A DNA stretch of 64,000 nt from an uncultured bacterium (GTDB taxonomy: Bacteria; Krumholzibacteriota; Krumholzibacteriia; Krumholzibacteriales; Krumholzibacteriaceae): contig CAWFAD010000011.1 in NCBI GenBank assembly GCA_963813815.1, forward strand, positions 32,001-96,000. Reading direction: 5' to 3'. The notes under the pieces are model-generated. The model saw only the letters and a program-made list of their open reading frames with translations. It did not search any database and was not told where the DNA came from. Positions 23,944-36,520 of the stretch are shown one piece after another; positions within the stretch are counted from its first letter, which is position 1, and each line of letters starts with the position of its first letter. The translations under genes were made by a program, and so were the position numbers.

Positions 23944-26367
23944 CTACCTCGCGAGCACCATCTTCTTCGTTTCCGAGTAGGCGCCCGTCTCGAGCCGGTA
24001 GAAATACACTCCGCTCGCGACGGCCCGCCCCGATGCGTCGCACCCGTCCCAGATCTCGGTATACCGCCCCGCCGTGCGATGCTCCTCAACGAGCGCGCGA
24101 ACGAGCCGCCCCGCGGGGTCGTAGATGCGGAGCGATACGCGCGCCGGCGTCCCGAGGCCGAACTCGACCCGCGTCATCGGATTGAAAGGATTCGGATAGT
24201 TCTGCGCGAGGTAGCTCGCCTCGGGCGGCGGAGGCGTCTCTCCGCCCGTGATCTGCTCGGGCGCGAGAATCGCGAAGCCGCTCTCGTTTCCATGGATATC
24301 GACCGCCGAGACCTTGTAGTAGTAGCCCACACTCCAGCTCCAGCCCGCGTCGAAGCAGATCGTGTCCTCGGGAGAGGCGATGAGGTTCCCCTCATCGGGA
24401 ATGAAATCCTCCGCGATCCCGCGGTACACGCGATAGCCCGCGAGGTCGGCCTCGGTATTGCCGTCCCACGAGAGCTCGAGGCCGTCGGGCACGTAGCTCT
24501 GCTCGGCCGCGAGGCCGAGAGGCAGGGTAGGGGCGAGGTTGTCGACCGAGTAGCCGCTGTCCGGCGCCGATTTCCAGAACACGAAGGGGTCGGACGTGTG
24601 AGCCACCACCTGGAAGTAATGATACTCGCCGCAAGCGGCGGTCGAGTCGAAGAGAGTGGCCACGGGCTTCCCGTATGCCTCCATGTAGAGCGCGTCGACC
24701 GTCTCCACGAGCTCCCAGAAGTAGGTGAGCGCTCCGATCTGCTCGACCCGTACGACGGGCTTGTCGGCCGCGGTATCGAGCTCGGATAGAGACGCGAGGG
24801 GCGAAACGCCCGAGTCGAGGGCGAGCGCCGCCTGCGTCGGACTGATGGCGCGCCAGATCGAGTAGTACGACATATCGCCCGTCATGAAGAGGTCGGGGCG
24901 GGCCGCGTACCAGGAGAGGTACACCTTGCCTCCCTGATCGCCGGGGACGTCGCGGACGGTGTGGATCTCCGGCGACAGCATGCCGGTGCGACCGAACGTG
25001 TCTATGAATTGAACGTAGATGTCGCCGTTCCCATCGCGGTAATCCGACCATGCGACGATCGCGCCGCCCCTGTTATCTGAGGCGATCACGGGATACTCCT
25101 GCGTCTGTGCCGCGGTGCAAAGAGCGACCCCATCCGCGGCCCATTGAACCGCTCCCGAAGGATTCACTCGCTGGGCGTAGATGTCATAGATCCCGCTGCG
25201 GGCGTCGAACCATGAGATGATGGCGCCGCCGTCGACGTCGGAAGCGATGACGGGATAATACTGAGTCCCGGTCGCCGTGCAGACGGCGATGCCGTTGGCG
25301 ATCCACTGGACGACACCCGAGGCATCCAGCTTTTGAGCGTAGATGTCATAGTTGCTGCCGTTGCGATAGTCGTACCACGAGACGATGGCGCCGCCGGCAT
25401 CGTCGGATACGATGACTGGATAATATTGAGCTCCCGTCGCAGTGCAGAGAGCGACGCCGGTCGTCGTCCATTGAACGACTCCAGAGGCGTTCACGCGCTG
25501 GGCATAGATGTCGTAGTTCGCGCTGCGGTAGTCGTACCACGTGACGATCGCGCCGCCCGTCCCGTCGGAGGCAATGGTGGGATACTGCTGATTCCACGCG
25601 ACGGTACAGAGGGCGACGCCGTCGACGGTCCATTGAGCGACTCCAGAGTTGCTCACTCGCTGAGCATAGATGTCATAGTTGCTGCCGTTGCGATAGTCCT
25701 GCCATGCGACGAGGGCTCCGCCGGCGCCGTCTGAGACGGTGGTGAGAGACAACTGGCCGTTCGCCGCCGCGCAGACGGCGACGCCATTGGCGGTCCACTG
25801 AACGACCCCCGAGGCATTCACCCTCTGAGCATAGACATCGTAGTTGGAGCCGCTCCGGTAGTCGTGCCACGTGATGATCGCGCCGCCGACACCGTCCGAG
25901 ACTATCTTCGGGTTCAACTGATCGCCTGTCCCTGCGCACAGAACCACCCCGTTCGCCGCCCACTGAACGGCTCCCGAGGCATCGACCCTCTGCGCGTAGA
26001 TGTCCCAGCTGGTGCTCGTGCGGTAATCGTGCCATGCGACGATCGCGCCGCCCGCGCCGTCGGAGACGATCGCCGGTACCTGCTGGTCAAACGCCATCGT
26101 GCAAAGAGCGACTCCGTTGGCCGTCCACAAGACTTCTCCAGAGGCGCTCACGCGTTGCGCGTAGATGTCCGTGTTCGAGTTGCGGTAGTCGTTCCACGCG
26201 ATGATCGCGCCGCCCGCGCCGTCGGAGCCGATTGCAGGGCGCAATTGATCTCCCGTGGCCGTACAGAGAGCGACGCCGTTTCCTACCCAATAAGCCCAGA
26301 TCGAAGGCACGGCGATTACGAGCGAACCGAGCGCCAGCGCAAACGCAACCTTCATAGCCTTGCTCAT
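23944..26367 (-). CDS. secreted repeat protein (8 repeats, probable beta-propeller) with FN3-like and C-terminal FlgD-Ig/sorting-type domain
   Basis: Signal peptide, 8 repeats of about 54 aa, DLAGYRVYRG...YKVSAVDIHGNES, LAQNYPNPFNP...WDG...VASGVYFYRL. Confidence 0.85.
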   Translation of the reverse strand: MSKAMKVAFALALGSLVIAVPSIWAYWVGNGVALCTATGDQLRPAIGSDGAGGAIIAWNDYRNSNTDIYAQRVSASGEVLWTANGVALCTMAFDQQVPAIVSDGAGGAIVAWHDYRTSTSWDIYAQRVDASGAVQWAANGVVLCAGTGDQLNPKIVSDGVGGAIITWHDYRSGSNYDVYAQRVNASGVVQWTANGVAVCAAANGQLSLTTVSDGAGGALVAWQDYRNGSNYDIYAQRVSNSGVAQWTVDGVALCTVAWNQQYPTIASDGTGGAIVTWYDYRSANYDIYAQRVNASGVVQWTTTGVALCTATGAQYYPVIVSDDAGGAIVSWYDYRNGSNYDIYAQKLDASGVVQWIANGIAVCTATGTQYYPVIASDVDGGAIISWFDARSGIYDIYAQRVNPSGAVQWAADGVALCTAAQTQEYPVIASDNRGGAIVAWSDYRDGNGDIYVQFIDTFGRTGMLSPEIHTVRDVPGDQGGKVYLSWYAARPDLFMTGDMSYYSIWRAISPTQAALALDSGVSPLASLSELDTAADKPVVRVEQIGALTYFWELVETVDALYMEAYGKPVATLFDSTAACGEYHYFQVVAHTSDPFVFWKSAPDSGYSVDNLAPTLPLGLAAEQSYVPDGLELSWDGNTEADLAGYRVYRGIAEDFIPDEGNLIASPEDTICFDAGWSWSVGYYYKVSAVDIHGNESGFAILAPEQITGGETPPPPEASYLAQNYPNPFNPMTRVEFGLGTPARVSLRIYDPAGRLVRALVEEHRTAGRYTEIWDGCDASGRAVASGVYFYRLETGAYSETKKMVLAR
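24991..26289 (-). repeat. 8 tandem coding repeats of about 162-165 bp
   Basis: Consensus W-x-x-NGVALCTA-x3-Q-x2-P-x-I-x-SDG-x-GGAI-x2-W-x-DYR-x4/5-DIYAQRV-x-ASG. Confidence 0.9.
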
Positions 26368-26575
26368 GGTCGTTTCTCCCTTCAAGGATGAATTTCGAAG
26401 CTATTTATTTATAGTAGCATACAGCGACAGCCTCATAAAGCAGAATATATGGCTTCGAAGAGCTTGCTGCCCGCCTTTTGGCTTTGACTCGGCGCGCCAT
26501 GCGCAATACACTGGTCTCGGTGGCGCAATGCTCATTCACCTATGAGACGCGTCTCCGTAAGATGAACCGGGAGCC

Positions 26576-27715
26576 GTGAGCGGGGTTCTCATGAAGCACC
26601 GCTACGTCGCGCTGGATTGGATGCGCGGGATCGTCATGATCCTCATGGCCTTGGACCACGCCTCCGGCGCGTTCAACAAGAGCAGACTCTTCACCGACTC
26701 GTTCTATCTCTATGAAACCGGCATGAGGCTTCCGGCGCTTCAGTTCTTCACGAGATGGATCACCCACATCTGCGCGCCGACGTTTCTCTTTCTCGCCGGG
26801 ACCGCCCTTGCCCTGAGCTTGGAGCGGCGGGGGAGAGCCGGCGAGTCGAACGCCTCCATCGACCGTTACTTGTTGACGCGGGGGCTCATCATCGCCGCGC
26901 TCGATCCGATTCTCATTTCATGGCTCTTCGGCTACGGCGGGATCATGTTTCAGGTCCTCTATGCGATCGGCATATCGCTCATTGTGATGATCCCGCTGAG
27001 GCGTCTCGGATCGAGTTGGCTCTTGGGAACATCCATGGGGTTCATTCTGCTGAGCGAAGCCCTGACCGGAATCCTGCACAGTCTCAACAACGGTCGGCCC
27101 ACGGCGATAGGAACCCTATTGATCCACGGCGGCGTGTATCCTCGTCTCATCGTCTCGTATCCGGTGTTCCCATGGCTCGCGGTGATGATGCTGGGCTTCG
27201 TGTTCGGGAAGAGGCTGCTGCGCTTCAGAGACTCCGGATCGACGCGATGGTCTCCTGCAAAGGCGCTTTTAGCGAGCGGAGCAGCCTCATTGCTCGCATT
27301 CAGCGTCATACGAGATTTAAATGGCTATGGGAATATGATGCTTCTCAGGGAGAGCGGCTCTCTCATCCAATGGCTTCACGTCAGCAAATACCCACCGAGC
27401 TTGTCGTTTCTGACGCTGGAGCTCGGACTGATGGCGCTCGTTCTGAGCCTATTATTCGGGCTTCAAGGCAGGTCCCGCGGACCGATACGGATAAATAGTC
27501 CGATACTCGTTTTCGGGCAGACGGCATTCTTTTTCTATATTCTGCATATCGTGATTCTCGAGCTTTCGGCTCGGGGCCTGCGCGTCCATGCGAGCAGGGG
27601 CCTGGGAACCGCGTACCTAGCGGCGGTGGCCGTTCTCGTTCTTCTCTATCCCTGCTGTCTCTGGTATCGGCGCCATAAGGCTTCCCACCCGAATGGCTGG
27701 GCGCGCTATGTTTAG
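26576..27715 (+). CDS. DUF1624 / heparan-alpha-glucosaminide N-acetyltransferase-like membrane protein
   Basis: LDWMRGIVMILMALDH, FFTRWITHICAPTFLFLAG, KYPPSL motifs. Confidence 0.85.
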   Translation: MSGVLMKHRYVALDWMRGIVMILMALDHASGAFNKSRLFTDSFYLYETGMRLPALQFFTRWITHICAPTFLFLAGTALALSLERRGRAGESNASIDRYLLTRGLIIAALDPILISWLFGYGGIMFQVLYAIGISLIVMIPLRRLGSSWLLGTSMGFILLSEALTGILHSLNNGRPTAIGTLLIHGGVYPRLIVSYPVFPWLAVMMLGFVFGKRLLRFRDSGSTRWSPAKALLASGAASLLAFSVIRDLNGYGNMMLLRESGSLIQWLHVSKYPPSLSFLTLELGLMALVLSLLFGLQGRSRGPIRINSPILVFGQTAFFFYILHIVILELSARGLRVHASRGLGTAYLAAVAVLVLLYPCCLWYRRHKASHPNGWARYV

Positions 27716-27798: not shown

Positions 27799-29553
27799 TT
27801 ACTGAATCTCCCTCGACTGCTCGTCGAAAAGGACGCGGTAGAGGCCGCCCGCCTGATAGAGCGTGTTGTGCGTGCCCGACTCGACCAGCCTGCCTTCGCT
27901 CAGCACGAAGATACGGTCCGCGTTCGTCACGCTCGTGAGGCGGTGGGCGATGATGATGACGGTTTGGCCTCTCACCTTCTCGAAGTAGCTCCCGAGCACC
28001 TGCCGCTCCGTGCGCGGATCGAGGGCGGAGGTGGCCTCGTCGAGGACGTGGATGCGGGGCGCCTTGAGGAGCGACCGCGCGAGCGCGAGCCGCTGGCGCT
28101 CTCCGCCCGAGAGGCGGAGCCCCTGCTGGCCGACGATCGTCTCGAGCCCCTCCGGCAGATTCGCGAGAAACTCCCCGAGAGAGGCCGTCTCCATGGCCGC
28201 GACGAGCTCCGCCTCCGTGGCCCGCGGCCGGGCCATCCGCAGGTTCCCCGCGATCGTGTCGTGAAACAGCTGCGTCTCCTGCGGAACGACGCCGATCGCG
28301 CGGCGGAGGCTCTTGAGCTTCCAGCGCCTGAGGTCGAGATCGTCGATGTAGACCGCGCCTTGCTGCGGATCGAGGTAACGGGCGATGATCGCGGCGAGCG
28401 TGGATTTGCCGCTTCCCGAGGGACCGACGAGCGCGATCACCTGCCCCGGCTCCACCGAGAGACTGATATTCTCTATCGCCCTCGCGCCGTTGGGCCACGT
28501 GAGGCCGACCTGCTCGAGGCGGATCGCGCCCGTGACGCGGGGCGGCGCCGTCGCCTCCGCGTGCTCCTGAATCTGCGGTTCCGTGTCGATGAGGTCGTAC
28601 ACTCGGGCGAGCGACGCCCTCGCCATCTGGAGCTCGATGTTGATGTCGATGAGCTGCGAGATCGGCCGGTAGAGACGGCTCGCGAGCGTGTAGAACGCCA
28701 CGAGACTGCCGAGGCTGAGCGTTCCGCCGAGCACCCGTCTGCCTCCCATGAGAAATACGAGGATAAAGGCGCCGGTCGACATGACGTCCGCGAGCGAGAC
28801 TTGTCCCGCGCCGATCACGGAGAGGGCGAGGTTGCTGCGGATCCACGGCCGCGACACGCGGACGAGGCGGCGGGTCTCGGCCTTCTCCCGGATAAGTTCC
28901 TGAACGAGGCGGATGCTCGAAATCCGCTCCTCGAGAAACGAGAAGAGGTCGGAGATCGCGTCCCTCGCCTTGATTCCCTCTTCCTGAATGCGGTGGTTGA
29001 TTTTCGCGAGGATGGCGACGAGGAACGGATAGACGAGGAGGAGCAGGAGCGTGAGGCTCGGATCGATCCAGAAGAGGATCGTCAATATCCCGACGATCGT
29101 CAAAACGTCCTGAATCGCGTTGACGATCGTGTGGGCGGCCGCGTGCTGGAGCACGTCGATGTCGGAGCTGATTCTCGCGAGTATGTCGCCCGTCTGCTCT
29201 CCGCGGAAGAAGAAGGGGGAGAGGCGTTCGACGTGCTCGAAGGCCTGCCGGCGGTAGTCGAAGAGGATCCGAAGCCCCGAGTAGCTGTAGAGCCAGACCG
29301 AGATGAGACGGAATCCCGTGCGAAAGACGAGCACGCCGAGAAGTATGGACACGAGCATGAGAAGAAGCGAGTAGTTGCCGTCGCCGATCGCGCGGTCGAT
29401 GATGGTTCGCAGGATCAGCGGATCGATCAGGTTGAGAAAGACGTTGATGATGAGGCAGACCGCGATTTCGGCCTGAAGGCCGTAGTAGGGGCTCACGCGC
29501 TCGCGGAGGAAGCGCCGCAAGAGCCCGCGTCGGCTGGGATTCGCCTGTTTCAT
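27799..29553 (-). CDS. ABC exporter (TMD+NBD), no N-terminal C39 peptidase domain; putative RiPP exporter
   Basis: 6-TM domain, GPSGSGKST, LSGGERQR, LDEATSALD; 584 aa; overlaps HlyD stop. Confidence 0.9.
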   Translation of the reverse strand: MKQANPSRRGLLRRFLRERVSPYYGLQAEIAVCLIINVFLNLIDPLILRTIIDRAIGDGNYSLLLMLVSILLGVLVFRTGFRLISVWLYSYSGLRILFDYRRQAFEHVERLSPFFFRGEQTGDILARISSDIDVLQHAAAHTIVNAIQDVLTIVGILTILFWIDPSLTLLLLLVYPFLVAILAKINHRIQEEGIKARDAISDLFSFLEERISSIRLVQELIREKAETRRLVRVSRPWIRSNLALSVIGAGQVSLADVMSTGAFILVFLMGGRRVLGGTLSLGSLVAFYTLASRLYRPISQLIDINIELQMARASLARVYDLIDTEPQIQEHAEATAPPRVTGAIRLEQVGLTWPNGARAIENISLSVEPGQVIALVGPSGSGKSTLAAIIARYLDPQQGAVYIDDLDLRRWKLKSLRRAIGVVPQETQLFHDTIAGNLRMARPRATEAELVAAMETASLGEFLANLPEGLETIVGQQGLRLSGGERQRLALARSLLKAPRIHVLDEATSALDPRTERQVLGSYFEKVRGQTVIIIAHRLTSVTNADRIFVLSEGRLVESGTHNTLYQAGGLYRVLFDEQSREIQ

Positions 29554-30620
29554 CGCTTCTTCGTCCCGGCGAGCCTTTCGATGAGGAGGTGGCCGAGAGA
29601 GACCTTCTCATCGACGATGATCCGCGCCTGCCCTTTCATTCCGTCATAGAGCGGGCCCGGCGCGGTCGAGGGGTCGAAGGACACCTTTACGGGAAAGCCG
29701 CCGCCGCTCCGGCAGTCGTCCACGAAATCGAGCCGCCCGGCGAGGGTGCCGTGGAGAAGCCAAGGGTATCCCTCGAGCCGGATTTTGACCCTGTGTCCGG
29801 GACGCGCGGAGGCGCGGCCGGCGTCGAAGACGGCGCCCTCGAAGCGGTCGGCCGGGCCGGTCGAGAGGCGCAGTATCTCCTCGCCGCGCGTTACGGTTCG
29901 TCCCATGAGCTCGAAGAGGTTCGCGCCGAGCACGATCCCCCGGGTATCCGCCGCGAGCGTGTCGAGGGCGAGCATGCGGTCCGTTTCACCCACAGCCGCG
30001 CGCTCCTCGGCGATTTGCCCGGCGAGATTCCGAATTTCCCCGTCGAGCTTCTCGATTTGGTCCCGATGCCGCGCTTCGAGCACGGGGCCCGCGGCCTCGG
30101 CTTCCTTGAGCGCCACCCGGGCGAGATCGAGGGCGAGCTCGGAATCCTGAAGCTCCAGCTTCGTCGTGAGCCCCATGTCCCAGAGCTGCTTCTTGAGATC
30201 GAACTGTATCTCGGCGCTCGAAAGCTCGAGCCGGCTCCGCTCGAGATCCCGCGAGGCTTGGAGAACCTCGGCGGGGTGGATCTGCGAGGCGAGTCGCCCG
30301 CGCTCGGCTCGGAGCACGACGATGCGGTCCGACAGGTTCGCGATCCGCGCCCTGATCTGCTCGTCCTGCGCGCGGAGCGGGGAGGACTCGAATGCGACGA
30401 GCGGCGCGCCGGCCCTAACGCTGTCCCCCGGCGCCACGAAAATCCCTTCGACGCGGCCTTCCCACGGCGCATACACAGCGACGGTGCCGCCGGCGAGACG
30501 GCCCTCGGCGATGACGACCCGGTCGATTCGCACAAAGAGGAGGAGACAGACCACGGCGACGAAAAGGCAGGAGCCGAGCGTCAAAAGGGGACGCAAAAGA
30601 GGCAGTGGGCGACGATGCAT
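29550..30620 (-). CDS. HlyD-family membrane fusion (secretion adaptor) protein
   Basis: N-terminal TM then VVIAEGRL, lipoyl-like VAPGDSVRAGAPL, long coiled coil, VKIRLEGYP..HGTLAG, GMKGQARI. Confidence 0.85.
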   Translation of the reverse strand: MHRRPLPLLRPLLTLGSCLFVAVVCLLLFVRIDRVVIAEGRLAGGTVAVYAPWEGRVEGIFVAPGDSVRAGAPLVAFESSPLRAQDEQIRARIANLSDRIVVLRAERGRLASQIHPAEVLQASRDLERSRLELSSAEIQFDLKKQLWDMGLTTKLELQDSELALDLARVALKEAEAAGPVLEARHRDQIEKLDGEIRNLAGQIAEERAAVGETDRMLALDTLAADTRGIVLGANLFELMGRTVTRGEEILRLSTGPADRFEGAVFDAGRASARPGHRVKIRLEGYPWLLHGTLAGRLDFVDDCRSGGGFPVKVSFDPSTAPGPLYDGMKGQARIIVDEKVSLGHLLIERLAGTKKR

Positions 30621-30678
30621 AAACCTCGCCGTGGGGTTAGAAGACTATTAACTGCGGTCGCGGCCTCGGAGCTTCGAC

Positions 30679-30789
30679 TCAGAGAGGGCCGATTTCGCAC
30701 GCGGGCGGATACTCGGCGCACTGCATGCAGTGCGTGAGCGGCGGTTTCACGTGCGCGATGTTCGTGGAATGCTTGACGACGAACTTCAT
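30679..30789 (-). CDS. putative RiPP precursor P6: MKFVVKHSTNIAHVKPPLTHCMQCAEYPPACEIGPL
   Basis: Hand-translated; GAGGTG RBS; shared leader and TxCxxCxExPxxC core. Confidence 0.88.
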   Translation of the reverse strand: MKFVVKHSTNIAHVKPPLTHCMQCAEYPPACEIGPL

Positions 30790-30816
30790 TTATTTTCACC
30801 TCTTCGATGGGACGAA

Positions 30817-30843
30817 GTGGCGCGGTCGCAGGGACCGCGCCAC
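30817..30843 (-). terminator. GC-rich hairpin between P5 and P6 (attenuator or mRNA-stabilising stem)
   Basis: GTGGCGCGGTC-GCAGG-GACCGCGCCAC, 11-bp perfect stem, only a short U tract. Confidence 0.5.
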
Positions 30844-30884
30844 TCGCCGAGCCATATCGATCGACGATTATCGAGAAATCGCGA

Positions 30885-30992
30885 TCAAATGGGGTCGATG
30901 ACGCAGGCTGCCGGATTCTCCTTGCAGAGCCAGCACAGCGTATAGTTGACCCTCTTCGCCACCTCGGCGTTACGCTTTACGACGAACTTCAT
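30885..30992 (-). CDS. putative RiPP precursor P5: MKFVVKRNAEVAKRVNYTLCWLCKENPAACVIDPI
   Basis: Hand-translated; GGGAGG RBS; shared leader and core. Confidence 0.88.
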   Translation of the reverse strand: MKFVVKRNAEVAKRVNYTLCWLCKENPAACVIDPI

Positions 30993-31038
30993 TGTTTCCC
31001 TCCCTTCCCTTTCCTTGCCCGTACGGGCTCACCTGGCG

Positions 31039-31137
31039 CTAGAAGCAGAATATGGGGTTTTCCGAGCACTGGGCGCAGCGGGTCGTGGGACCATTATGCG
31101 GTCCGACGCCGTTACGGCCGAGAACGATGAACTTCAT
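31039..31137 (-). CDS. putative RiPP precursor P4: MKFIVLGRNGVGPHNGPTTRCAQCSENPIFCF
   Basis: Hand-translated; GAGGAG RBS; shared leader and core. Confidence 0.88.
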   Translation of the reverse strand: MKFIVLGRNGVGPHNGPTTRCAQCSENPIFCF

Positions 31138-31194
31138 GAGGATCGCTCCTCTCGCAACGATTGGAGATACGGCAGCCGAAATTTAGAGAGTCCC

Positions 31195-31211
31195 TTGAAC
31201 AATCAGTTCAA
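31195..31211. promoter_or_regulatory. inverted repeat TTGAAC-N5-GTTCAA, candidate operator
   Basis: Perfect 6-bp palindromic arms just downstream of the predicted internal promoter. Confidence 0.4.
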
Positions 31212-31224
31212 AAATAACCCTTTA

Positions 31225-31253
31225 ATTTTGTCATAGAGCGCGGCGGGAGTCAA
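31225..31253 (-). promoter_or_regulatory. sigma-70-like promoter for P4-P6-hlyD-ABC
   Basis: TTGACT-17 nt-CAAAAT with a TG extended -10 element. Confidence 0.5.
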
Positions 31254-31275
31254 GGTATTTGGGAGTGGCCCGCGG

Positions 31276-31314
31276 AAAGGGAAATGGCGCGCTCCCGGAG
31301 GAGCGCGCCATTCC
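31276..31314 (-). terminator. intrinsic terminator after P1-P3
   Basis: Minus strand GGAATGGCGCGCTCC-TCCG-GGAGCGCGCCATTTC followed by CCTTT. Confidence 0.6.
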
Positions 31315-31388
31315 ATGGCGCATTCTCAGCACTTCGGAAATCCGCAAAGTGCTTGCGGGCACCGATGCTCATCGCGCGCCGGCTCCGA

Positions 31389-31487
31389 TCAGTAGCAGGC
31401 GAGTGGATTCTCCTTGCAGAGAAAGCACATTGTGATCCTCGGCATGGCCGATTTGCGCGTCTCGGCGGGCTTTACGACGAACTTCAT
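31389..31487 (-). CDS. putative RiPP precursor P3: MKFVVKPAETRKSAMPRITMCFLCKENPLACY
   Basis: Hand-translated; AAGGAGGTG RBS; shared leader and core. Confidence 0.88.
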   Translation of the reverse strand: MKFVVKPAETRKSAMPRITMCFLCKENPLACY

Positions 31488-31490
31488 ACT

Positions 31491-31514
31491 TCACCTCCTT
31501 ACGATGAACTTGAT
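31491..31514 (-). pseudogene. relic leader fragment ATC-AAG-TTC-ATC-GTA-AGG-AGG-TGA (IKFIVRR*)
   Basis: Matches the precursor start ATG AAG TTC ATC GT except ATG>ATC; preceded by GAGGGGG. Confidence 0.45.
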
Positions 31515-31528
31515 GTGTTCCCCCTCGC

Positions 31529-31645
31529 TCACTCGCACCAGTGCGGGTCTTCCGAGCAGAGGGCGCAGAGCGTATGTCTCGGAATAACGCCATCCGAAGG
31601 CTTCGCATGGCGCGTTTCGGGGTTTGATGTCACGATGAACTTCAT
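31529..31645 (-). CDS. putative RiPP precursor P2: MKFIVTSNPETRHAKPSDGVIPRHTLCALCSEDPHWCE
   Basis: Hand-translated; GGAGGAG RBS; shared leader and core. Confidence 0.88.
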   Translation of the reverse strand: MKFIVTSNPETRHAKPSDGVIPRHTLCALCSEDPHWCE

Positions 31646-31665
31646 AGCGCCTCTCCTCCCTATTA

Positions 31666-31770
31666 TCACTCTTCGCAGGCGCGGGGCTCCTCATGGCAAA
31701 GCCAGCAGCGCGTCAAATGAGTGGAATTCGATCCGCGCGTCCCGAGCAACGGCTTCACGACGAATCTCAT
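31666..31770 (-). CDS. putative RiPP precursor P1: MRFVVKPLLGTRGSNSTHLTRCWLCHEEPRACEE
   Basis: AAGGAGG RBS; is the tail of track ORF 31666..32661; shared leader and core. Confidence 0.88.
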   Translation of the reverse strand: MRFVVKPLLGTRGSNSTHLTRCWLCHEEPRACEE

Positions 31771-31816
31771 GAGTACCCTCCTTTCCCCTAGGCTGAATTG
31801 GATGCTGAATTCGTTA

Positions 31817-31848
31817 AGCTTGACATATATGAAATAAGCTGTCAACAT
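31817..31848. promoter_or_regulatory. overlapping divergent promoters or palindromic site between precursors and maturase operon
   Basis: TTGACA (31820-25) and TGTCAA (31840-45) form an inverted pair in an AT-rich 96-bp gap. Confidence 0.5.
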
Positions 31849-31866
31849 ATTTAACGTGAGACTGTT

Positions 31867-32778
31867 ATGGAAAAAGAGATAATCCTCGTCGGAATTCCCG
31901 GATCGGGTCTCGCGAGGGAGATTGCCGCGCATCTCAGCGGCACTCTTTTTACTCCGAGGATCCTGTCCGTCGACGCGCCCTTCGAGGGGCGGGCGGTGAC
32001 GTTTGCTCCCGGGACCATCGTGTGGGAAGGGGTCGAGCTGCTCGAGGCGAGCGCCATATTCGCGGAGTGTTCGGTATTCAACTGGCCGCAGGCGCTCCTT
32101 CCCTTCGAAAACGATTCCAGTGGGCTCGCGTATAAGGAATGGGCCATCTTCCAGCGGGAGGCGCGTTCGCTCGTCGTATCCTCGCTCTGGGCGGCGGGGA
32201 GGGAGCGCCCGATGATAAACCCGCCGTCCGCGGCTCACCTCGCTCTCTCGCCCTCGATAGCGCTCGATTATCTGAAGCAAGCGGGGATCCAGGTCCATCC
32301 GTGGAGCGTCGAATCGGCTCCGCCGGATGAAGGGGCGGGAGCGGGGTTGGTTCTCGATGTCTGCGGGCGCGAGCGCTGGCATTCCCCGCGCCGGCCGCCG
32401 GCCGGCGACCCGGCTCTCGTGCTCGAGCCGCACGATAATGAGGTCGTGACCTTCATGGTCGCGGGCGGCTCGGTCCTCGGAGCGCTTCGCTACGCGCGAG
32501 GGGAATCGTGGGCGAAACGGCAGACGGGATCGATCGGGGCGGATGAGCCCGGGCTCACGATCGATCTCGCGCCTTTTTCCGAAGCGGCCGACCTCGCGAA
32601 ACGCTCGACCGAAGCGCTCGGGCTCGTTTTCGCGGCGGTATCCGTTCGCGCGGGCGCTCATCCCCCCTCGGTCATGCTCGTCGAGGCGAGCCCCGATCTC
32701 GAATCATGGAACGCGAAACTCGCGGGGCGCGTCGCGCGCTCCCTCGCCGATTGTCTCGTCGCCGCGGCCAGCTCCTGA
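31867..32778 (+). CDS. degenerate ATP-grasp (RimK-like) fold protein
   Basis: MINPP...LDYLKQAGIQV, LAKRSTEALGLVFAAVSV...MLVEASP; usual catalytic Lys, Asp and E-x-N not evident. Confidence 0.6.
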   Translation: MEKEIILVGIPGSGLAREIAAHLSGTLFTPRILSVDAPFEGRAVTFAPGTIVWEGVELLEASAIFAECSVFNWPQALLPFENDSSGLAYKEWAIFQREARSLVVSSLWAAGRERPMINPPSAAHLALSPSIALDYLKQAGIQVHPWSVESAPPDEGAGAGLVLDVCGRERWHSPRRPPAGDPALVLEPHDNEVVTFMVAGGSVLGALRYARGESWAKRQTGSIGADEPGLTIDLAPFSEAADLAKRSTEALGLVFAAVSVRAGAHPPSVMLVEASPDLESWNAKLAGRVARSLADCLVAAASS

Positions 32779-32810
32779 GCCGGGGCCCCGAAGCAAAGGA
32801 GTCGGATTCG

Positions 32811-34175
32811 ATGAAAGCGTCGCGCTACAATAAGCTCTTCCAGGCTTCGAACGGCGCGTGGCTCGCCTTCAACGGGTGGACCACCTCGCTCGCCGAGATC
32901 GAGCCGGAGCAGCTCGAGTTCTTCAGGGCCCTTCTCGCCGATCCCGACCATGTTCCGTGCGACACGGCCGAGAAACGCGATATGCGCGAGGCGATGATCG
33001 AGGCTAATTTTCTCATCGAGGACGGCATGGACGAGCTCAGCGCGACCAAGGTCGACAGCATGCGCGACCGGTTCGGCGGAGATTACCTGTATCTCACGAT
33101 AGCGCCGACCCTCAACTGCAACTTCCGGTGCGATTACTGCTACGAGGAGCACCTCAAGATCACGATGCCGAAGGCGATCGAGGCCGCGCTCCTGCGGTGG
33201 ACCGAGGAGCGCACGAAGGGGTTGAGCGAGCTTCATATCACCTGGTACGGGGGGGAGCCGCTTCTGCCCGGCGCTTACGATGCGGTGGAGCGCCTTTCCG
33301 GGGCGTTCCAGAAGCTGGCGGGAGAGCGGGGGATGAAGTACGGCGCTCATCTCGTCACGAACGCGTACCTCCTCGATAGGCCGAAGATGGAGTCGCTCGT
33401 CCGGCTCGGCGTCAATCTCGTGCAGGTGACGCTCGACGGCCCTCCCGCGATTCACGACGCGCGCCGGCATCTCGCCGGCGGACAGGGGACCTTCGCGAAG
33501 ATCGTCGAGAACGTCAAGAGCACGGTCGATCTCGCGGAGTTTCAGCTCAGGATCAACGTCGACCGGCGCAACGCGCTCTCCGCGCTCGAGGTCATCGAGA
33601 TTCTCGATGGAGAGGGGCTCACGGGGAAGATCCGTCCCTATCTCGCGCAGGTGATCTCCGGCGGCGGGACGTGCGGCAACATCAACGAGAGCTATTTCTC
33701 GAGCGAGGAATTCGCGGCGATGGAGATAGGGATCTACCGCGAAGCGGCGGCGAGGGGGCTCCGCATCATGCGCTACCCGTTCAGGCATCCCGGGGGTTTC
33801 TGCACGGCGGACCGCGCGAACGCCTACGTCGTCTCGCCGAACGGCTCGCTCTTCAAATGCTGGAACGACGTCACCATGAATCCCGACCGATCCGTGGGCT
33901 CGATCCTCGACGAGCAGGAGCCGTATCAGAAGCGCAACGAGGATCGCTGGCTCGCCTGGGATTCTCTCGAGAAAAAGGGGTGTCGCTCCTGCGAGATCCT
34001 CCCGATGTGCCACGGTGGATGCCCGATGACGGCGCTCGAGCATCCGGAGCGGGATCGAGGCGCGTGCGACCACTATAAGTTCCACCTCGAGCAGCTTCTC
34101 GAGCTCAAGTATCTCGCGCAGGCGGGCGGCGTCGAAGCGGGCGACGAATCTCCGAAGAGGAGGTGCGGCGGGTGA
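32811..34175 (+). CDS. radical SAM/SPASM-domain peptide maturase
   Basis: CNFRCDYC, WYGGEPLL, QVTLDG; SPASM C-x18-C...CxxCx5Cx3C-x14-C; about 90-aa N-terminal extension (MKASRYN...), possibly an RRE. Confidence 0.92.
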   Translation: MKASRYNKLFQASNGAWLAFNGWTTSLAEIEPEQLEFFRALLADPDHVPCDTAEKRDMREAMIEANFLIEDGMDELSATKVDSMRDRFGGDYLYLTIAPTLNCNFRCDYCYEEHLKITMPKAIEAALLRWTEERTKGLSELHITWYGGEPLLPGAYDAVERLSGAFQKLAGERGMKYGAHLVTNAYLLDRPKMESLVRLGVNLVQVTLDGPPAIHDARRHLAGGQGTFAKIVENVKSTVDLAEFQLRINVDRRNALSALEVIEILDGEGLTGKIRPYLAQVISGGGTCGNINESYFSSEEFAAMEIGIYREAAARGLRIMRYPFRHPGGFCTADRANAYVVSPNGSLFKCWNDVTMNPDRSVGSILDEQEPYQKRNEDRWLAWDSLEKKGCRSCEILPMCHGGCPMTALEHPERDRGACDHYKFHLEQLLELKYLAQAGGVEAGDESPKRRCGG

Positions 34176-35113
34176 CGCGCGTCGGAATCATCGGCCCCGG
34201 CGACCGCGAGGAGATGACCCGGCTCGCGATCCGTATCGAGGAGCGCGGCGCCGAGGCGGCTATTCTCGACAGCCGGGTGAATTCCTCTCTGCGGGTGGCG
34301 CCGGGGGAGGAGAGCCTCTGCGGCGTGCCGCTCGCGGAATTCACCGCCTTTTACGTCGCCGACCTCGGGCTGCCGAGCCCCGTCGCGCGCGGGCCGGACG
34401 GAGAGGTCGACAGAGCCGCGAGCGAGCGAGCGCTCGCCCATTCGCGGCGCCGCCTCGCGGCGTGGGACGCGCTCCTCGCCCGTCTCGAATTGCGCTGCAC
34501 GGTCGTCAATCCATACCGCACGCACGACATTCACGCCCTGAAGCCGCACGAGGCGGAGGCGTACATCCGGCTCGGCCTGCCGGTGCCGTATGCTCGCGCG
34601 ACCTCGGACGCCGAGGCGCTGCTCGCTTTGCCGGAGGTTTCATCGGCGTCGTGGATTCGCAAGGGAATGGTGGGGGGGAGCGATTACACGGAGGCGTACG
34701 TTCCGCCGCTCTCTCTCGAGGAGGCGCGGACGAGGCTCCGGCTCGGGCCCATCATGGTGCAGGAGAGGATAGAAGGGGATAATCTGCGCGCCTTCGTGCT
34801 CGACGGCGCCATGATCGGCGCCGCCGAGGTCATCAGTCACTCGGGCTCCGAGACGGACACACGCCGGGGCAGAATCAGGGTGCGGCGGGTCGATTTGCCC
34901 GAGGAGGCCTCGCGCGCGGCGGTGGCCGCCGCCGCCTGCTGGGGCATGTCCTTCGGGGCCGTCGACTTCATGATCGATGCGCGCAGCGGACGATACTGCA
35001 TTCTCGAGTGCAACTCGGCCCCCTTCTTCGTGAACTTCGAGCGCATGTCCGGCCATCCGATCGCGAGCCGGCTCGCCGAATACCTCTGTCGCAGGCGGCC
35101 GGGCGCTGCATAG
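34172..35113 (+). CDS. ATP-grasp ligase (RimK-like)
   Basis: VVNP...LK...GLPVP, IRKGMVGG, MVQERIEG..LRAFV, GAVDF...ILECNSAP; GTGA overlap with rSAM stop. Confidence 0.85.
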   Translation: MTRVGIIGPGDREEMTRLAIRIEERGAEAAILDSRVNSSLRVAPGEESLCGVPLAEFTAFYVADLGLPSPVARGPDGEVDRAASERALAHSRRRLAAWDALLARLELRCTVVNPYRTHDIHALKPHEAEAYIRLGLPVPYARATSDAEALLALPEVSSASWIRKGMVGGSDYTEAYVPPLSLEEARTRLRLGPIMVQERIEGDNLRAFVLDGAMIGAAEVISHSGSETDTRRGRIRVRRVDLPEEASRAAVAAAACWGMSFGAVDFMIDARSGRYCILECNSAPFFVNFERMSGHPIASRLAEYLCRRRPGAA

Positions 35114-35131
35114 ACGGCGCGCCGTCGAGAG

Positions 35132-35932
35132 GTGAGGATCGTGAACGAACCTCGATCGATGTTCGAGACGCCTCTTCTGCAGAGGATATACGATCACATC
35201 CGCGAGGAGCGGGATCCCGGGTTTTCGTTCTTCTCCGGCGAGACGATCCCGTGGGCCGGCCCCGTCGCCTCTCTCGCCGACACGCGGGTCGCGATCGTCT
35301 CGTCGGGCGCATTTCACGAGAAGGGGGACGCGCCGTTCGAATGCCTCGAGTCGCTCTTCGGGGATACGAGCTTTCGCGTGATTCCGCACGGGAGCGGGAA
35401 CGTCGATCTCGATGCTCCATACGTCGATCAGAAATACGCCGTGCACGACCTCGAGGTGGCGCTTCCCATGAAGGCGCTCGACGGGCTTCACGCGGAGCGG
35501 CGCATCGGGCCGCCTGCGCCGCGGCATTTCAGCTTCTGCGGCGGCATCGTGCACCCTCTGCCCGGACTTCACGAGAGCGCGGCGCGGGTGGAGAGGATTC
35601 TCCGCGAGGACGGCGCGGGGGCCGTCGTGCTGCTCCCGACCTGCTCGCTCTGCGTGCAGACGATCTCCGTCGTGGCGCGCGAGCTCGAGTCACTCGGCAT
35701 TCGCACGGTGGCCGTTTCGCTCATCCCGGAGCTCTCGCGGATCGTCGGGACGCCGCGGACCGTGAGCGTGCACTTTCCGTTCGGGGCCCCGTGCGGCAAT
35801 CCGGGGCACGCGGAGCTGCACCGGGCGGTCTTGCTCGAGGCGCTCTCGATGCTCGAGGACGCGCGCGAGCCGGGAGAGGTCCGCGCGTCGAACAACGCTT
35901 GGCGCAAATCGCCGGCCGGCCCGGAGGCATGA
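35132..35932 (+). CDS. glycine/betaine/D-proline reductase selenoprotein B (GrdB/PrdB)-like protein, Cys form
   Basis: RVAIVSSGA, GDTSFRVIP, HFSFCG, LPTCSLCVQTISVVARELESLGIRTV, PRTVSVHFPFGAPCG; no in-frame TGA. Confidence 0.75.
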   Translation: MRIVNEPRSMFETPLLQRIYDHIREERDPGFSFFSGETIPWAGPVASLADTRVAIVSSGAFHEKGDAPFECLESLFGDTSFRVIPHGSGNVDLDAPYVDQKYAVHDLEVALPMKALDGLHAERRIGPPAPRHFSFCGGIVHPLPGLHESAARVERILREDGAGAVVLLPTCSLCVQTISVVARELESLGIRTVAVSLIPELSRIVGTPRTVSVHFPFGAPCGNPGHAELHRAVLLEALSMLEDAREPGEVRASNNAWRKSPAGPEA

Positions 35933-35962
35933 GCCGGCGGCGTCCGCGAAGGAGGCTCCGGT

Positions 35963-36520
35963 ATGGCGCTCAAGGTGCTGGGGATAGCGGGAAGCCTGCG
36001 AAAGGGCTCGTACAACCGGGCGCTGCTCAGGGCCGCGGTCGAGCTCGCCCCGGAGGGAATGACGATCGAGATAGCCGAGATCGACGGGATCCCCCCCTTC
36101 AACGAGGACCTCGAGAAGCAGGGGATGCCGCCCGCGGTCGCGGAGCTCAGGCGGCGCGCGGCGGAGGCCGGCGCCCTGCTCATCGCGACCCCGGAGTACA
36201 ACCACTCGGTTCCGGGCGTTCTCAAGAACGCCATCGACTGGCTCTCGAGAGGCTCCGACCAGCCGCTCGACGGAAAACCCGCCGCGATCATGGGCGCTTC
36301 GACCGGTATGATCGGCACGGCCCGCGCTCAGGTGCATCTGCGGGATCTGGCGGTCACGGTGAACATGGCCGTGCTCGCCCAGCCGGAGGTGCTCGTCGCG
36401 CGCGCCGGAGAGCGGTTCGACGGGCGCCCCGAGCTCACGGATGAGCCGACGAGGCGGCGCGTACGGGCGCTGCTCGAGGCCCTGCGGGTCTGGGCGACGG
36501 CTCTCGGGGAACGGAAATAG
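35963..36520 (+). CDS. NAD(P)H-dependent FMN reductase
   Basis: GSLRKGSYN, ATPEYNHSVPGVLKNAIDWLSR, GTARAQ. Confidence 0.9.
   Translation: MALKVLGIAGSLRKGSYNRALLRAAVELAPEGMTIEIAEIDGIPPFNEDLEKQGMPPAVAELRRRAAEAGALLIATPEYNHSVPGVLKNAIDWLSRGSDQPLDGKPAAIMGASTGMIGTARAQVHLRDLAVTVNMAVLAQPEVLVARAGERFDGRPELTDEPTRRRVRALLEALRVWATALGERK

Follow-up and report, generated by a model that had tools for sequence, protein, structure and literature searches.

Among the peptides that are synthesized ribosomally and modified after translation (RiPPs), the group 2 graspetide plesiocin has a core that reportedly carries two esters. According to the PsnB paper, the plesiocin ligase makes Thr-Glu esters on the sequence TTxxxxEE with a recognition that depends on leader Phe15; the paper reports that Arg213 recognises the ring-forming acid, that an essential DFR loop is typical of graspetide enzymes, and that the protein's dimer is asymmetric, with the holo-complex formed by only one of its subunits. 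As reported in PMC13097080 (Carter 2026), graspetide group 14 co-occurs with a SPASM protein, and the only reported partner-dependent graspetide synthetase uses a SurA-like protein. Among the radical S-adenosylmethionine (SAM) enzymes, CrpC, a member of TIGR04463, is described in PMC13692751 (2026) as binding three [4Fe-4S] clusters and installing ranthionine thioethers on a Cys-rich protein. The two types of enzyme are also treated together by Makarova 2022 (PMC8939145), where ATP-grasp and SPASM proteins, chiefly those of Bacteroidetes, are predicted to act jointly on cores that contain Thr/Ser, Asp/Glu and Cys. The present analysis concerns a locus at positions 27,799 to 36,520 of a 64,000-nucleotide stretch, hereafter called the window, from an uncultured bacterium of the Krumholzibacteriaceae (assembly GCA_963813815.1, contig CAWFAD010000011.1, positions 32,001 to 96,000 of the forward strand); it encodes six short Cys-rich peptides, an ATP-binding cassette (ABC) exporter with an HlyD-family adaptor, two ATP-grasp-fold proteins (AG1 and AG2), a radical SAM/SPASM enzyme and a PrdB-like protein. 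The cluster probably makes small exported peptides that are cross-linked in two ways, and with slightly better than even confidence it is read here as an undescribed RiPP gene cluster family, in which radical SAM thioethers and an AG2-made ester would be placed on a 13-residue core before export.

The six precursor peptides share the N-terminus M[KR]F[IV]V and, near the C-terminus, the 13-residue core T-x-C-x2-C-x-E-x-P-x2-C. Translated in six frames, the window contains the core motif T.C..C.E.P..C six times against 0.00014 expected and the leader motif six times against 0.022 expected, while a comparison of the six peptides with NCBIfam at E ≤ 10 matched no family. The neighbourhoods of homologues, where the initial annotation had proposed looking for the same peptide motif, do contain it: a six-frame motif scan of the window and the 16 syntenic loci described below gave 30 distinct motif-bearing precursors, found in the window and in 15 of the 16, with two more in loci L033 and L036; the sixteenth is a 5-kb contig, and another contig of the same genome has a precursor. 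All 31 aligned precursors retain M1, F3 and V5 of the leader together with T1, C3, C6, E8, P10 and C13 of the core; the remaining core positions are hypervariable, the leader ranges from 15 to 27 residues, the tail from 0 to 5 and the whole precursor from 29 to 41 amino acids. The variable tail of 1–5 residues is present in 31 of the 32 precursors, the L033 peptide ending without one. Trp occupies core position 4 in 16/30 precursors and is not conserved, and no GG motif is conserved among the 31 aligned leaders. A search with the leader motif only returned no peptide lacking the core. Against 1.84 billion representative proteins, the peptide profile gave 107 cluster matches at E ≤ 0.001 (27 at E ≤ 1e-10), mostly of 29–56 residues with a few up to about 92, whose source names are 'hypothetical protein' or 'radical SAM protein'; the long matches P0121, P0192 and P0213 were rejected as unrelated repeat proteins, leaving 104 that are not spurious. 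Three matches combine a single leader with two cores in one precursor, an arrangement that favours the view of the core as a module.

The enzymes that accompany these peptides travel with them. A protein search with the radical SAM enzyme, taking one genome per species, yielded 17 loci, each of which was compared by tblastn with the proteins of the window; 16 carry ABC, HlyD, AG1, radical SAM, AG2 and PrdB-like genes whose relative order is preserved up to the contig ends (the PrdB-like gene being absent in L013), with radical SAM identities of 54–74%. Their metagenome-assembled genomes (MAGs) are labelled Terriglobia/Acidobacteriota, Planctomycetota or Krumholzibacteriota, the two closest being labelled 'uncultured bacterium' and 'Patescibacteria group'. 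The seventeenth locus, with a Clostridiaceae radical SAM protein of 28% identity, was rejected as unrelated, having none of the other cluster genes. Two further complete sets in genomes of the window's own class bring the total to 18 further MAG loci. Within the phylum, a radical SAM match at E ≤ 1e-80 occurs in 7 of 208 genomes, the window's included, whereas the genus itself has no match among its 15 other genomes; two of the seven (L031 and L032; genomes G093 and G096) were set aside as another family on account of 35–37% identity, a tandem second radical SAM gene and no ATP-grasp gene within 4.3 kb. L032 additionally has an ABC transporter fragment beside its radical SAM pair, and both loci probably belong to a different peptide system. 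A more distant subfamily (L044, L045:1-9630 and L046, one of them labelled Atribacteria) encodes two-core precursors that begin with MKFITTPE and bear the same core motif, together with, in this order, a 306-residue AG1-like protein (hhalign 75%, E 2.5e-5), a radical SAM enzyme (39% identity) and an ATP-grasp protein (33–35%), with no tblastn match to the ABC, HlyD or PrdB-like proteins in up to 9 kb. The gene set of this subfamily indicates that the conserved heart of the system consists of the peptide, the AG1-like protein, the radical SAM enzyme and AG2. A PpiC-type rotamase gene and a DUF6754 gene also lie within 5 kb in the distant subfamily, and L047 and L048 were rejected as relatives, their matches of 12–13 residues being at chance level. 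The cluster is a conserved system and not a chance neighbourhood.

The best NCBIfam matches of the radical SAM enzyme are TIGR04463 with 299.6 bits (cut-off 525) and the Clo7bot maturase with 294.1 (cut-off 600), followed by the CefB, geopeptide, FlmE/OhkG and PapB families; other thioether families likewise score it below their cut-offs (PapB NF047865, 107.6 vs 340; SCIFF TIGR03974, 61.7 vs 425), and the SPASM domain model TIGR04085 scores 59.6, above its cut-off of 27. The CxxxCxxC motif reported in the initial annotation is indeed present: C104, C108 and C111, which form the motif of the SAM cluster, are invariant in 15/15 aligned orthologues, and so are C289, C332, C351, C392, C395, C401, C405 and C420, with SPASM spacings of C332-x13-G-x4-C351 and C392-x2-C395-x5-C401-x3-C405. 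An AlphaFold 2 (AF2) model of mean predicted local distance difference test (pLDDT) 79.6 finds its best folds in TigE and in CteB, a thioether synthase bearing a RiPP recognition element (RRE), over 458–485 columns, and SuiB is a full-length match too. The N-terminal 90 residues are modelled as strands and helices (pLDDT 83–95); a Pfam scan of the protein gave no PqqD match, and by its predicted fold this domain appears RRE-like, with a putative role in leader recognition. Owing to the family and fold homology and to the likeness to CrpC and CteB, thioethers from the three invariant core Cys are the best-supported reading, on a homology that lies below the family cut-offs. The enzyme would then bind the leader MKF[IV]V(K)(P) and form thioether cross-links from one, two or all three invariant Cys, most likely of the ranthionine type, as for CrpC of the nearest curated family.

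The family profile of AG2 aligns over its full length with PsnB at E 8.1e-36, then with PruB at 1.1e-19 and RimK at about 1e-12, and the MptN and LysX profiles are matched as well. Invariant in 14/14 sequences are K127, K167, R209, D232-x-R234, D268 and E282-x-N284, of which R209 aligns with PsnB Arg213 and D232-x-R234 with the PsnB DFR loop. The curated graspetide maturase models score AG2 below their cut-offs (TIGR04187, 55.9 of 350; TIGR04184, 29.4 of 475; TIGR04185, 40.3 of 425). Judged by these residues, AG2 is predicted to be a competent ligase, closest to PsnB, that has every catalytic residue of graspetide synthetases. AG1 matches no Pfam or NCBIfam model; its family profile matches RimK at E 1.8e-8, hhalign pairs it with AG2 at a probability of 98.4% (E 7e-15), and its AF2 model (pLDDT 90.8) has PsnB as best fold (E 6e-15, TM-score 0.71), followed by AMdnB, PruB and RimK. 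In the merged AG1/AG2 alignment, the equivalents of K127, K167, D268, E282 and N284 are kept in 0/15 AG1 sequences and that of R209 in only 3/15. The initial annotation had counted two ATP-grasp proteins, which is true of the fold of both and of the intact residues of AG2; it does not extend to the catalytic residues of AG1, which by sequence is a pseudoenzyme, as both ATP-binding lysines and both Mg ligands are lost in 15/15, and thus a catalytically dead paralogue of AG2. By analogy with the asymmetric PsnB dimer, AG1 may pair with AG2, either replacing the non-catalytic subunit as a silent partner or presenting the substrate.

With Glu8 as the only invariant carboxylate of the core and Thr1 as the only invariant hydroxyl, a Thr1-Glu8 ester is the most economical reading, and their spacing of i to i+7 equals the widest Thr/Glu pairing that TTxxxxEE allows. 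AG2 would phosphorylate Glu8 and close the omega-ester with Thr1. That the Cys thioethers and this ester would both be installed on one core is pure inference.

The PrdB-like protein scores 94.1 bits with TIGR04483, below the cut-off of 300, and shares 31% identity over 212 residues (BLASTP, E 8e-30) with a true PrdB, the reference being a 415-bit protein with an in-frame TGA from the Clostridiaceae MAG of L017 (G001). The selenocysteine (Sec) of the latter aligns with C171 and its next Cys with C174; the gene in the window has no in-frame TGA, so that Cys171 stands at the Sec position, and LLP[TS]CS[LV]CVQ is invariant in 12/12 orthologues. A protein database search with the PrdB-like sequence gave 142 clusters, of which the 120 listed span 247–293 amino acids and a minority have been named automatically, for instance as PrdB or as selenoprotein B family; a PDB sequence search with its profile gave no match. 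A single query, the PrdA fragment from G001, found no PrdA homologue in the window's genome, which is 90.8% complete. In G001 itself (L023-L026), the true Sec-containing PrdB lies beside PrdA-like genes, and three GrdB-like genes have one in-frame TGA each. Across the 19 cluster genomes (the window and 18 loci), the PrdB-like gene is present for 17, the remaining two being L001, where the contig ends, and L013, where it was not found. The most that can be inferred is that the protein may perform a thiol-based redox step, with its CxxC acting on Cys or on the thioether-bearing peptide.

For export, the ABC protein has orthologues of 55–76% identity in 14 related loci. The NCBIfam MsbA_rel and HlyB-type/PCAT-type profiles match it only from profile position about 142–145, all below cut-off, and Pfam and NCBIfam scans found no N-terminal C39 peptidase domain. 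The HlyD family assignment is weak, as both profile scores lie below cut-off (TIGR01843, 56.6 bits vs 208.65; PF16576, 24.7 bits vs 30); syntenic HlyD orthologues are 32–68% identical. The ABC/HlyD pair would export the finished product. In Acidobacteriota-type clusters, a gene of about 400 residues follows directly after AG2 (L003:10300-11508, L004:10303-11511, L013:10306-11520, L015:10283-11488 and L008:2328-3518); its HELxGH is invariant, searches of Pfam, NCBIfam and PDB sequences gave no match to it, and it was not found in the window's genome. The motif is reminiscent of zinc peptidases, and this gene could be a candidate for the missing leader peptidase.

Several observations weigh against the proposed two-enzyme pathway. 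The scores of the radical SAM enzyme lie below cut-off for every curated thioether-maturase family, TIGR04463 included (299.6 vs 525), as does that of AG2 for the graspetide models (55.9 vs 350 for TIGR04187); no leader peptidase is encoded in the locus of the window; and the PrdB-like gene is absent from the otherwise complete locus L013 and was not found in its genome G209, nor did it have a tblastn match in the distant subfamily loci, so that it may be dispensable. Cys-Thr thioether links are known, and Glu8 and Thr1 could be thioether acceptors instead of ester partners. For QhpD, PMC13692751 cites links from Cys to Glu and to Asp. In a rival reading, peptide modification would be left to the radical SAM enzyme only, for which the single invariant acid and the single invariant hydroxyl are both possible acceptors, and the ATP-grasp pair would ligate in the manner of RimK/LysX, for example adding amino acids onto Glu8 or the C-terminus, or would act on another substrate. 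The matches of AG2 to the RimK, MptN and LysX profiles and the variable C-terminal tail in nearly all precursors (31/32) agree with such a ligation. It is nevertheless an unlikely explanation, given that PsnB is by far the best match of AG2 (full length, E 8e-36 vs about 1e-12 for RimK), that the fold of AG1 is also closest to PsnB, and that AG2 has the acid-recognising Arg and the D-x-R loop, the latter described in the PsnB paper as typical of graspetide enzymes.

The chemistry of the radical SAM enzyme may also be questioned, as SPASM maturases are chemically diverse and all thioether-family scores are below cut-off; a C-C or C-O cross-link or an epimerisation would then be formed, with the three Cys serving as a disulfide or metal knuckle handled by the PrdB-like CxxC. 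CxxC...C is also a common metal or disulfide motif, Trp is frequent at core position 4 (16/30), and TigE, the top fold, is not annotated as a thioether synthase in its entry title. These points have to be set against the invariant side chains that are plausible for a radical SAM enzyme, which are limited to the three Cys, Thr, Glu and Pro, Trp not being conserved, and against a nearest curated family with a ranthionine-forming member and the presence of CteB among the top folds; non-thioether chemistry is rated as improbable. Much harder to sustain, and very improbable, is a product that is not a secreted natural product at all and is instead a peptide-derived redox cofactor, similar to pyrroloquinoline quinone (PQQ) or mycofactocin, or a set of small regulatory peptides. 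A radical SAM/SPASM enzyme with an RRE and a small peptide is the layout of PQQ and mycofactocin as well, and the PrdB-like redox protein adjoins, as does a flavin mononucleotide (FMN) reductase in this genome only; this reductase, however, is a flank and not part of the cluster, and a cofactor accords poorly with paralogous precursors that number up to six in a locus and are diversified, their positions outside the motif being hypervariable, with a dedicated ABC/HlyD exporter syntenic in 14 loci, and with the patchy occurrence in 7/208 genomes of the phylum and 0/15 of the same genus. A bolder version of the two-enzyme pathway, speculative and distinctly unlikely, would have a Stickland-type subunit recruited into peptide maturation, whereby the PrdB-like CxxC would reductively cleave a C-S or C-N bond at the carbon activated by the radical SAM enzyme, AG1 and AG2 would form an obligate live/dead heterodimer, and the product would be a new RiPP class. 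If this were true, the reductive step would edit a thioether or free the core from its leader, the latter of which would explain the absence of a peptidase at the locus, and thioether, ester and reductive chemistry would meet on a 13-residue core.

The arrangement of the locus is given in the table below, in which gene calls are based on the list of open reading frames (ORFs) and on the reverse-strand sequence of the window. The initial annotation had described six short paralogous Cys-rich peptides, HlyD and an ABC exporter on the minus strand and a plus-strand run of ATP-grasp-like, radical SAM/SPASM, ATP-grasp, PrdB-like and FMN reductase genes, and all of these were found in place.

Table. 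Genes of the locus, with positions numbered from the first base of the window.
Feature	Position	Strand	Basis or remarks
ABC exporter, 584 aa, permease with six transmembrane segments + ATPase	27799..29553	-	PF00664 145 bits, PF00005 115 bits
HlyD-family membrane-fusion adaptor	29550..30620	-	TIGR01843 and PF16576 matches, both below cut-off
Precursor peptide 6, 36 aa	30679..30789	-	Leader MKFVVK..., core THCMQCAEYPPAC, tail EIGPL
Precursor peptide 5, 35 aa	30885..30992	-	Core TLCWLCKENPAAC, tail VIDPI
Precursor peptide 4, 32 aa	31039..31137	-	Core TRCAQCSENPIFC, tail F
Precursor peptide 3, 32 aa	31389..31487	-	Core TMCFLCKENPLAC, tail Y
Precursor peptide 2, 38 aa	31529..31645	-	Core TLCALCSEDPHWC, tail E
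Precursor peptide 1, 34 aa	31666..31770	-	Leader MRFVVK..., core TRCWLCHEEPRAC, tail EE
AG1, predicted ATP-grasp-fold pseudoenzyme, AG2 paralogue	31867..32778	+	Profile, fold, hhalign
Putative RRE-radical SAM-SPASM peptide maturase, 455 aa	32808..34175	+	NCBIfam, invariant Cys, fold
AG2, predicted PsnB-like ATP-grasp ligase	34163..35113	+	Pfam RimK 28.8 bits; PsnB profile match
PrdB-like protein, Cys-type, CxxC (C171, C174)	35132..35932	+	TIGR04483 94.1 bits
FMN reductase	35963..36520	+	PF03358 149 bits; flank gene

The enzyme genes on the plus strand diverge from the peptide array and exporter on the minus strand, where the ABC and HlyD genes overlap by 4 bases. Each of the six peptide ATGs has a purine-rich, Shine-Dalgarno-like stretch just upstream; the ORF of peptide 1 is the end part of a long spurious ORF, and for peptide 2 the ATG at 31645 is preferred over the upstream GTG of the listed ORF, as it restores the MKF[IV]V N-terminus. 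The radical SAM gene most likely starts at 32808 and not at 32706, since family profiles begin at residue 36–41 of the long ORF and AAGGAG precedes 32808. A 250-base spacer (31138-31388) divides the array into 3 + 3 genes and carries on the minus strand a sigma-70-like site, TTGACT-17-CAAAAT with TG upstream (31253-31225); the 1.5-kb region scanned contains two sites of this kind where 0.5 would be expected, and the one in the spacer may be a candidate second promoter, from which the distal peptides and the exporter would be transcribed.

On the right, a gap of 30 bases separates the PrdB-like gene from the FMN reductase gene, which has the same orientation and is followed by BamA, Skp and LpxD. 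The reductase had been counted in the gene set by the initial annotation, a membership that is rejected here because no related locus compared has a tblastn match to it; in a genome of the same genus without a match to the radical SAM query, the reductase likewise precedes BamA, with a DNA identity of 84.6% across 5.6 kb, and from this synteny and the lack of matches in related loci it is recognised as a conserved flank. On the left, an acyltransferase gene (26576-27715) was rejected as a member, having no homologue in the 17 loci from the radical SAM query, and the minus strand at 23944-26385 encodes a beta-propeller-like, repetitive protein of 813 residues whose C-terminal domain is of the T9SS/FlgD-Ig sorting type. 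The beta-propeller-like gene is kept at about 69% DNA identity beside a different gene set in a same-genus genome; in a genome of the genus other than the one with the reductase-BamA synteny, the interval from this gene to the FMN reductase is instead occupied by Ser/Thr kinases that have TPR repeats, by a GH46 hydrolase and by a DUF4143 ATPase. The cluster occupies a variable slot between conserved flanks.

The locus offers a compact and strongly conserved 13-residue scaffold on which to ask whether radical SAM thioethers and an ATP-grasp ester coexist, and its six-copy array with hypervariable non-motif positions suggests a natural library of peptides that share one fixed, cross-linked frame; the literature searched gave no characterised natural peptide with both modifications. 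It also raises the questions of whether a dead ATP-grasp paralogue can be the silent half of an asymmetric macrocyclase dimer, and of what job a selenium-free PrdB homologue has outside amino-acid fermentation. MAGs that have the system bear the labels Acidobacteriota, Planctomycetota, Krumholzibacteriota and Atribacteria, with a dedicated exporter in the first three.

The idea of an ATP-grasp/SPASM hybrid is not new in principle, and it is the present gene set and peptide motif that are undescribed in the literature searched. The search covered titles and abstract openings for a natural ranthipeptide/graspetide hybrid, and none was reported there; likewise, no paper was found with the peptide motifs (the supplements of Makarova 2022 lying outside the search), none linking PrdB to RiPP maturation and none on an ATP-grasp pseudoenzyme in a RiPP context. 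The text of Makarova 2022 (PMC8939145) does not mention Planctomycetes, Acidobacteria, PrdB or GrdB, and the part of the PMC13097080 supplement examined, a weak basis, has no MKFIV-type precursor and none of four NCBI accessions that belong to one orthologous locus. The initial annotation's view that no characterised class has such a precursor motif and enzyme set thus agrees with this literature and with the curated families, all of which fall below cut-off. Its distinction from grasp-with-spasm holds as well, as neither TIGR04192 nor TIGR04193 matched any part of the genome with E ≤ 0.01.

The grasp-with-spasm systems themselves (TIGR04192/TIGR04193; branch 5 in the text of PMC8939145, Bacteroidetes; graspetide group 14 of Carter 2026) resemble the present locus in placing an ATP-grasp ligase and a SPASM protein beside short precursors with ABC/HlyD export, and their precursors are described as having conserved Thr/Ser and Asp/Glu and sometimes three Cys (PMC8939145, PMC13097080); the enzyme here, by contrast, is a complete radical SAM protein with CxxxCxxC, there is neither a GG leader nor a C39 transporter domain, and the pseudo-ATP-grasp and PrdB-like genes are extra. 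The export of GG-leader peptides by peptidase-containing ABC transporters (PCATs) differs in the same respect, the ABC protein here having no C39 domain and the leaders no conserved GG. With CrpC/TIGR04463, CteB and PapB, the radical SAM enzyme shares the radical SAM and SPASM architecture, preceded by a putative RRE, a best curated match of 299.6 bits over the full length and a CteB-like fold. As in the Crp system of PMC13692751, where CrpC makes ranthionine links, a Cys-rich substrate is encoded beside the enzyme; however, the substrates here are peptides of 29–41 residues with a 13-residue core and not a large repeat protein, the radical SAM enzyme is below the 525-bit cut-off, and the Crp cluster, as that source describes it, has no ATP-grasp partners.

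The MirB/MirC pair of rosaritide, as presented in PMC13097080, combines a graspetide synthetase with a strictly co-occurring non-catalytic partner, to which AG2 and AG1 may be compared; MirC is SurA/PPIase-like, whereas the partner here would be a degenerate ATP-grasp paralogue. With the D-proline reductase subunit PrdB and with GrdB of Stickland fermentation, the PrdB-like protein shares the 31% identity over 212 residues and a CxxC in register with UxxC, and it differs in having Cys for Sec, 94 bits against 300, no PrdA found with the query used, and a gene inside a peptide-maturation operon. Plesiocin PsnA2/PsnB is the counterpart for the ester: AG2 matches PsnB over its full length and has preserved the lysines for ATP, the ligands for Mg, the counterpart of Arg213 and the D-x-R loop, the precursors have an invariant Thr and Glu seven positions apart, as in the outermost pair of TTxxxxEE, and their leader has an invariant Phe, where the PsnB paper describes recognition as needing leader Phe15. 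Beyond these likenesses, the NCBIfam graspetide models remain below cut-off here, the core allows one possible ester in place of two and holds three invariant Cys and a Pro, and the ligase is accompanied by a radical SAM/SPASM enzyme, by its own dead paralogue and by a PrdB-like protein.

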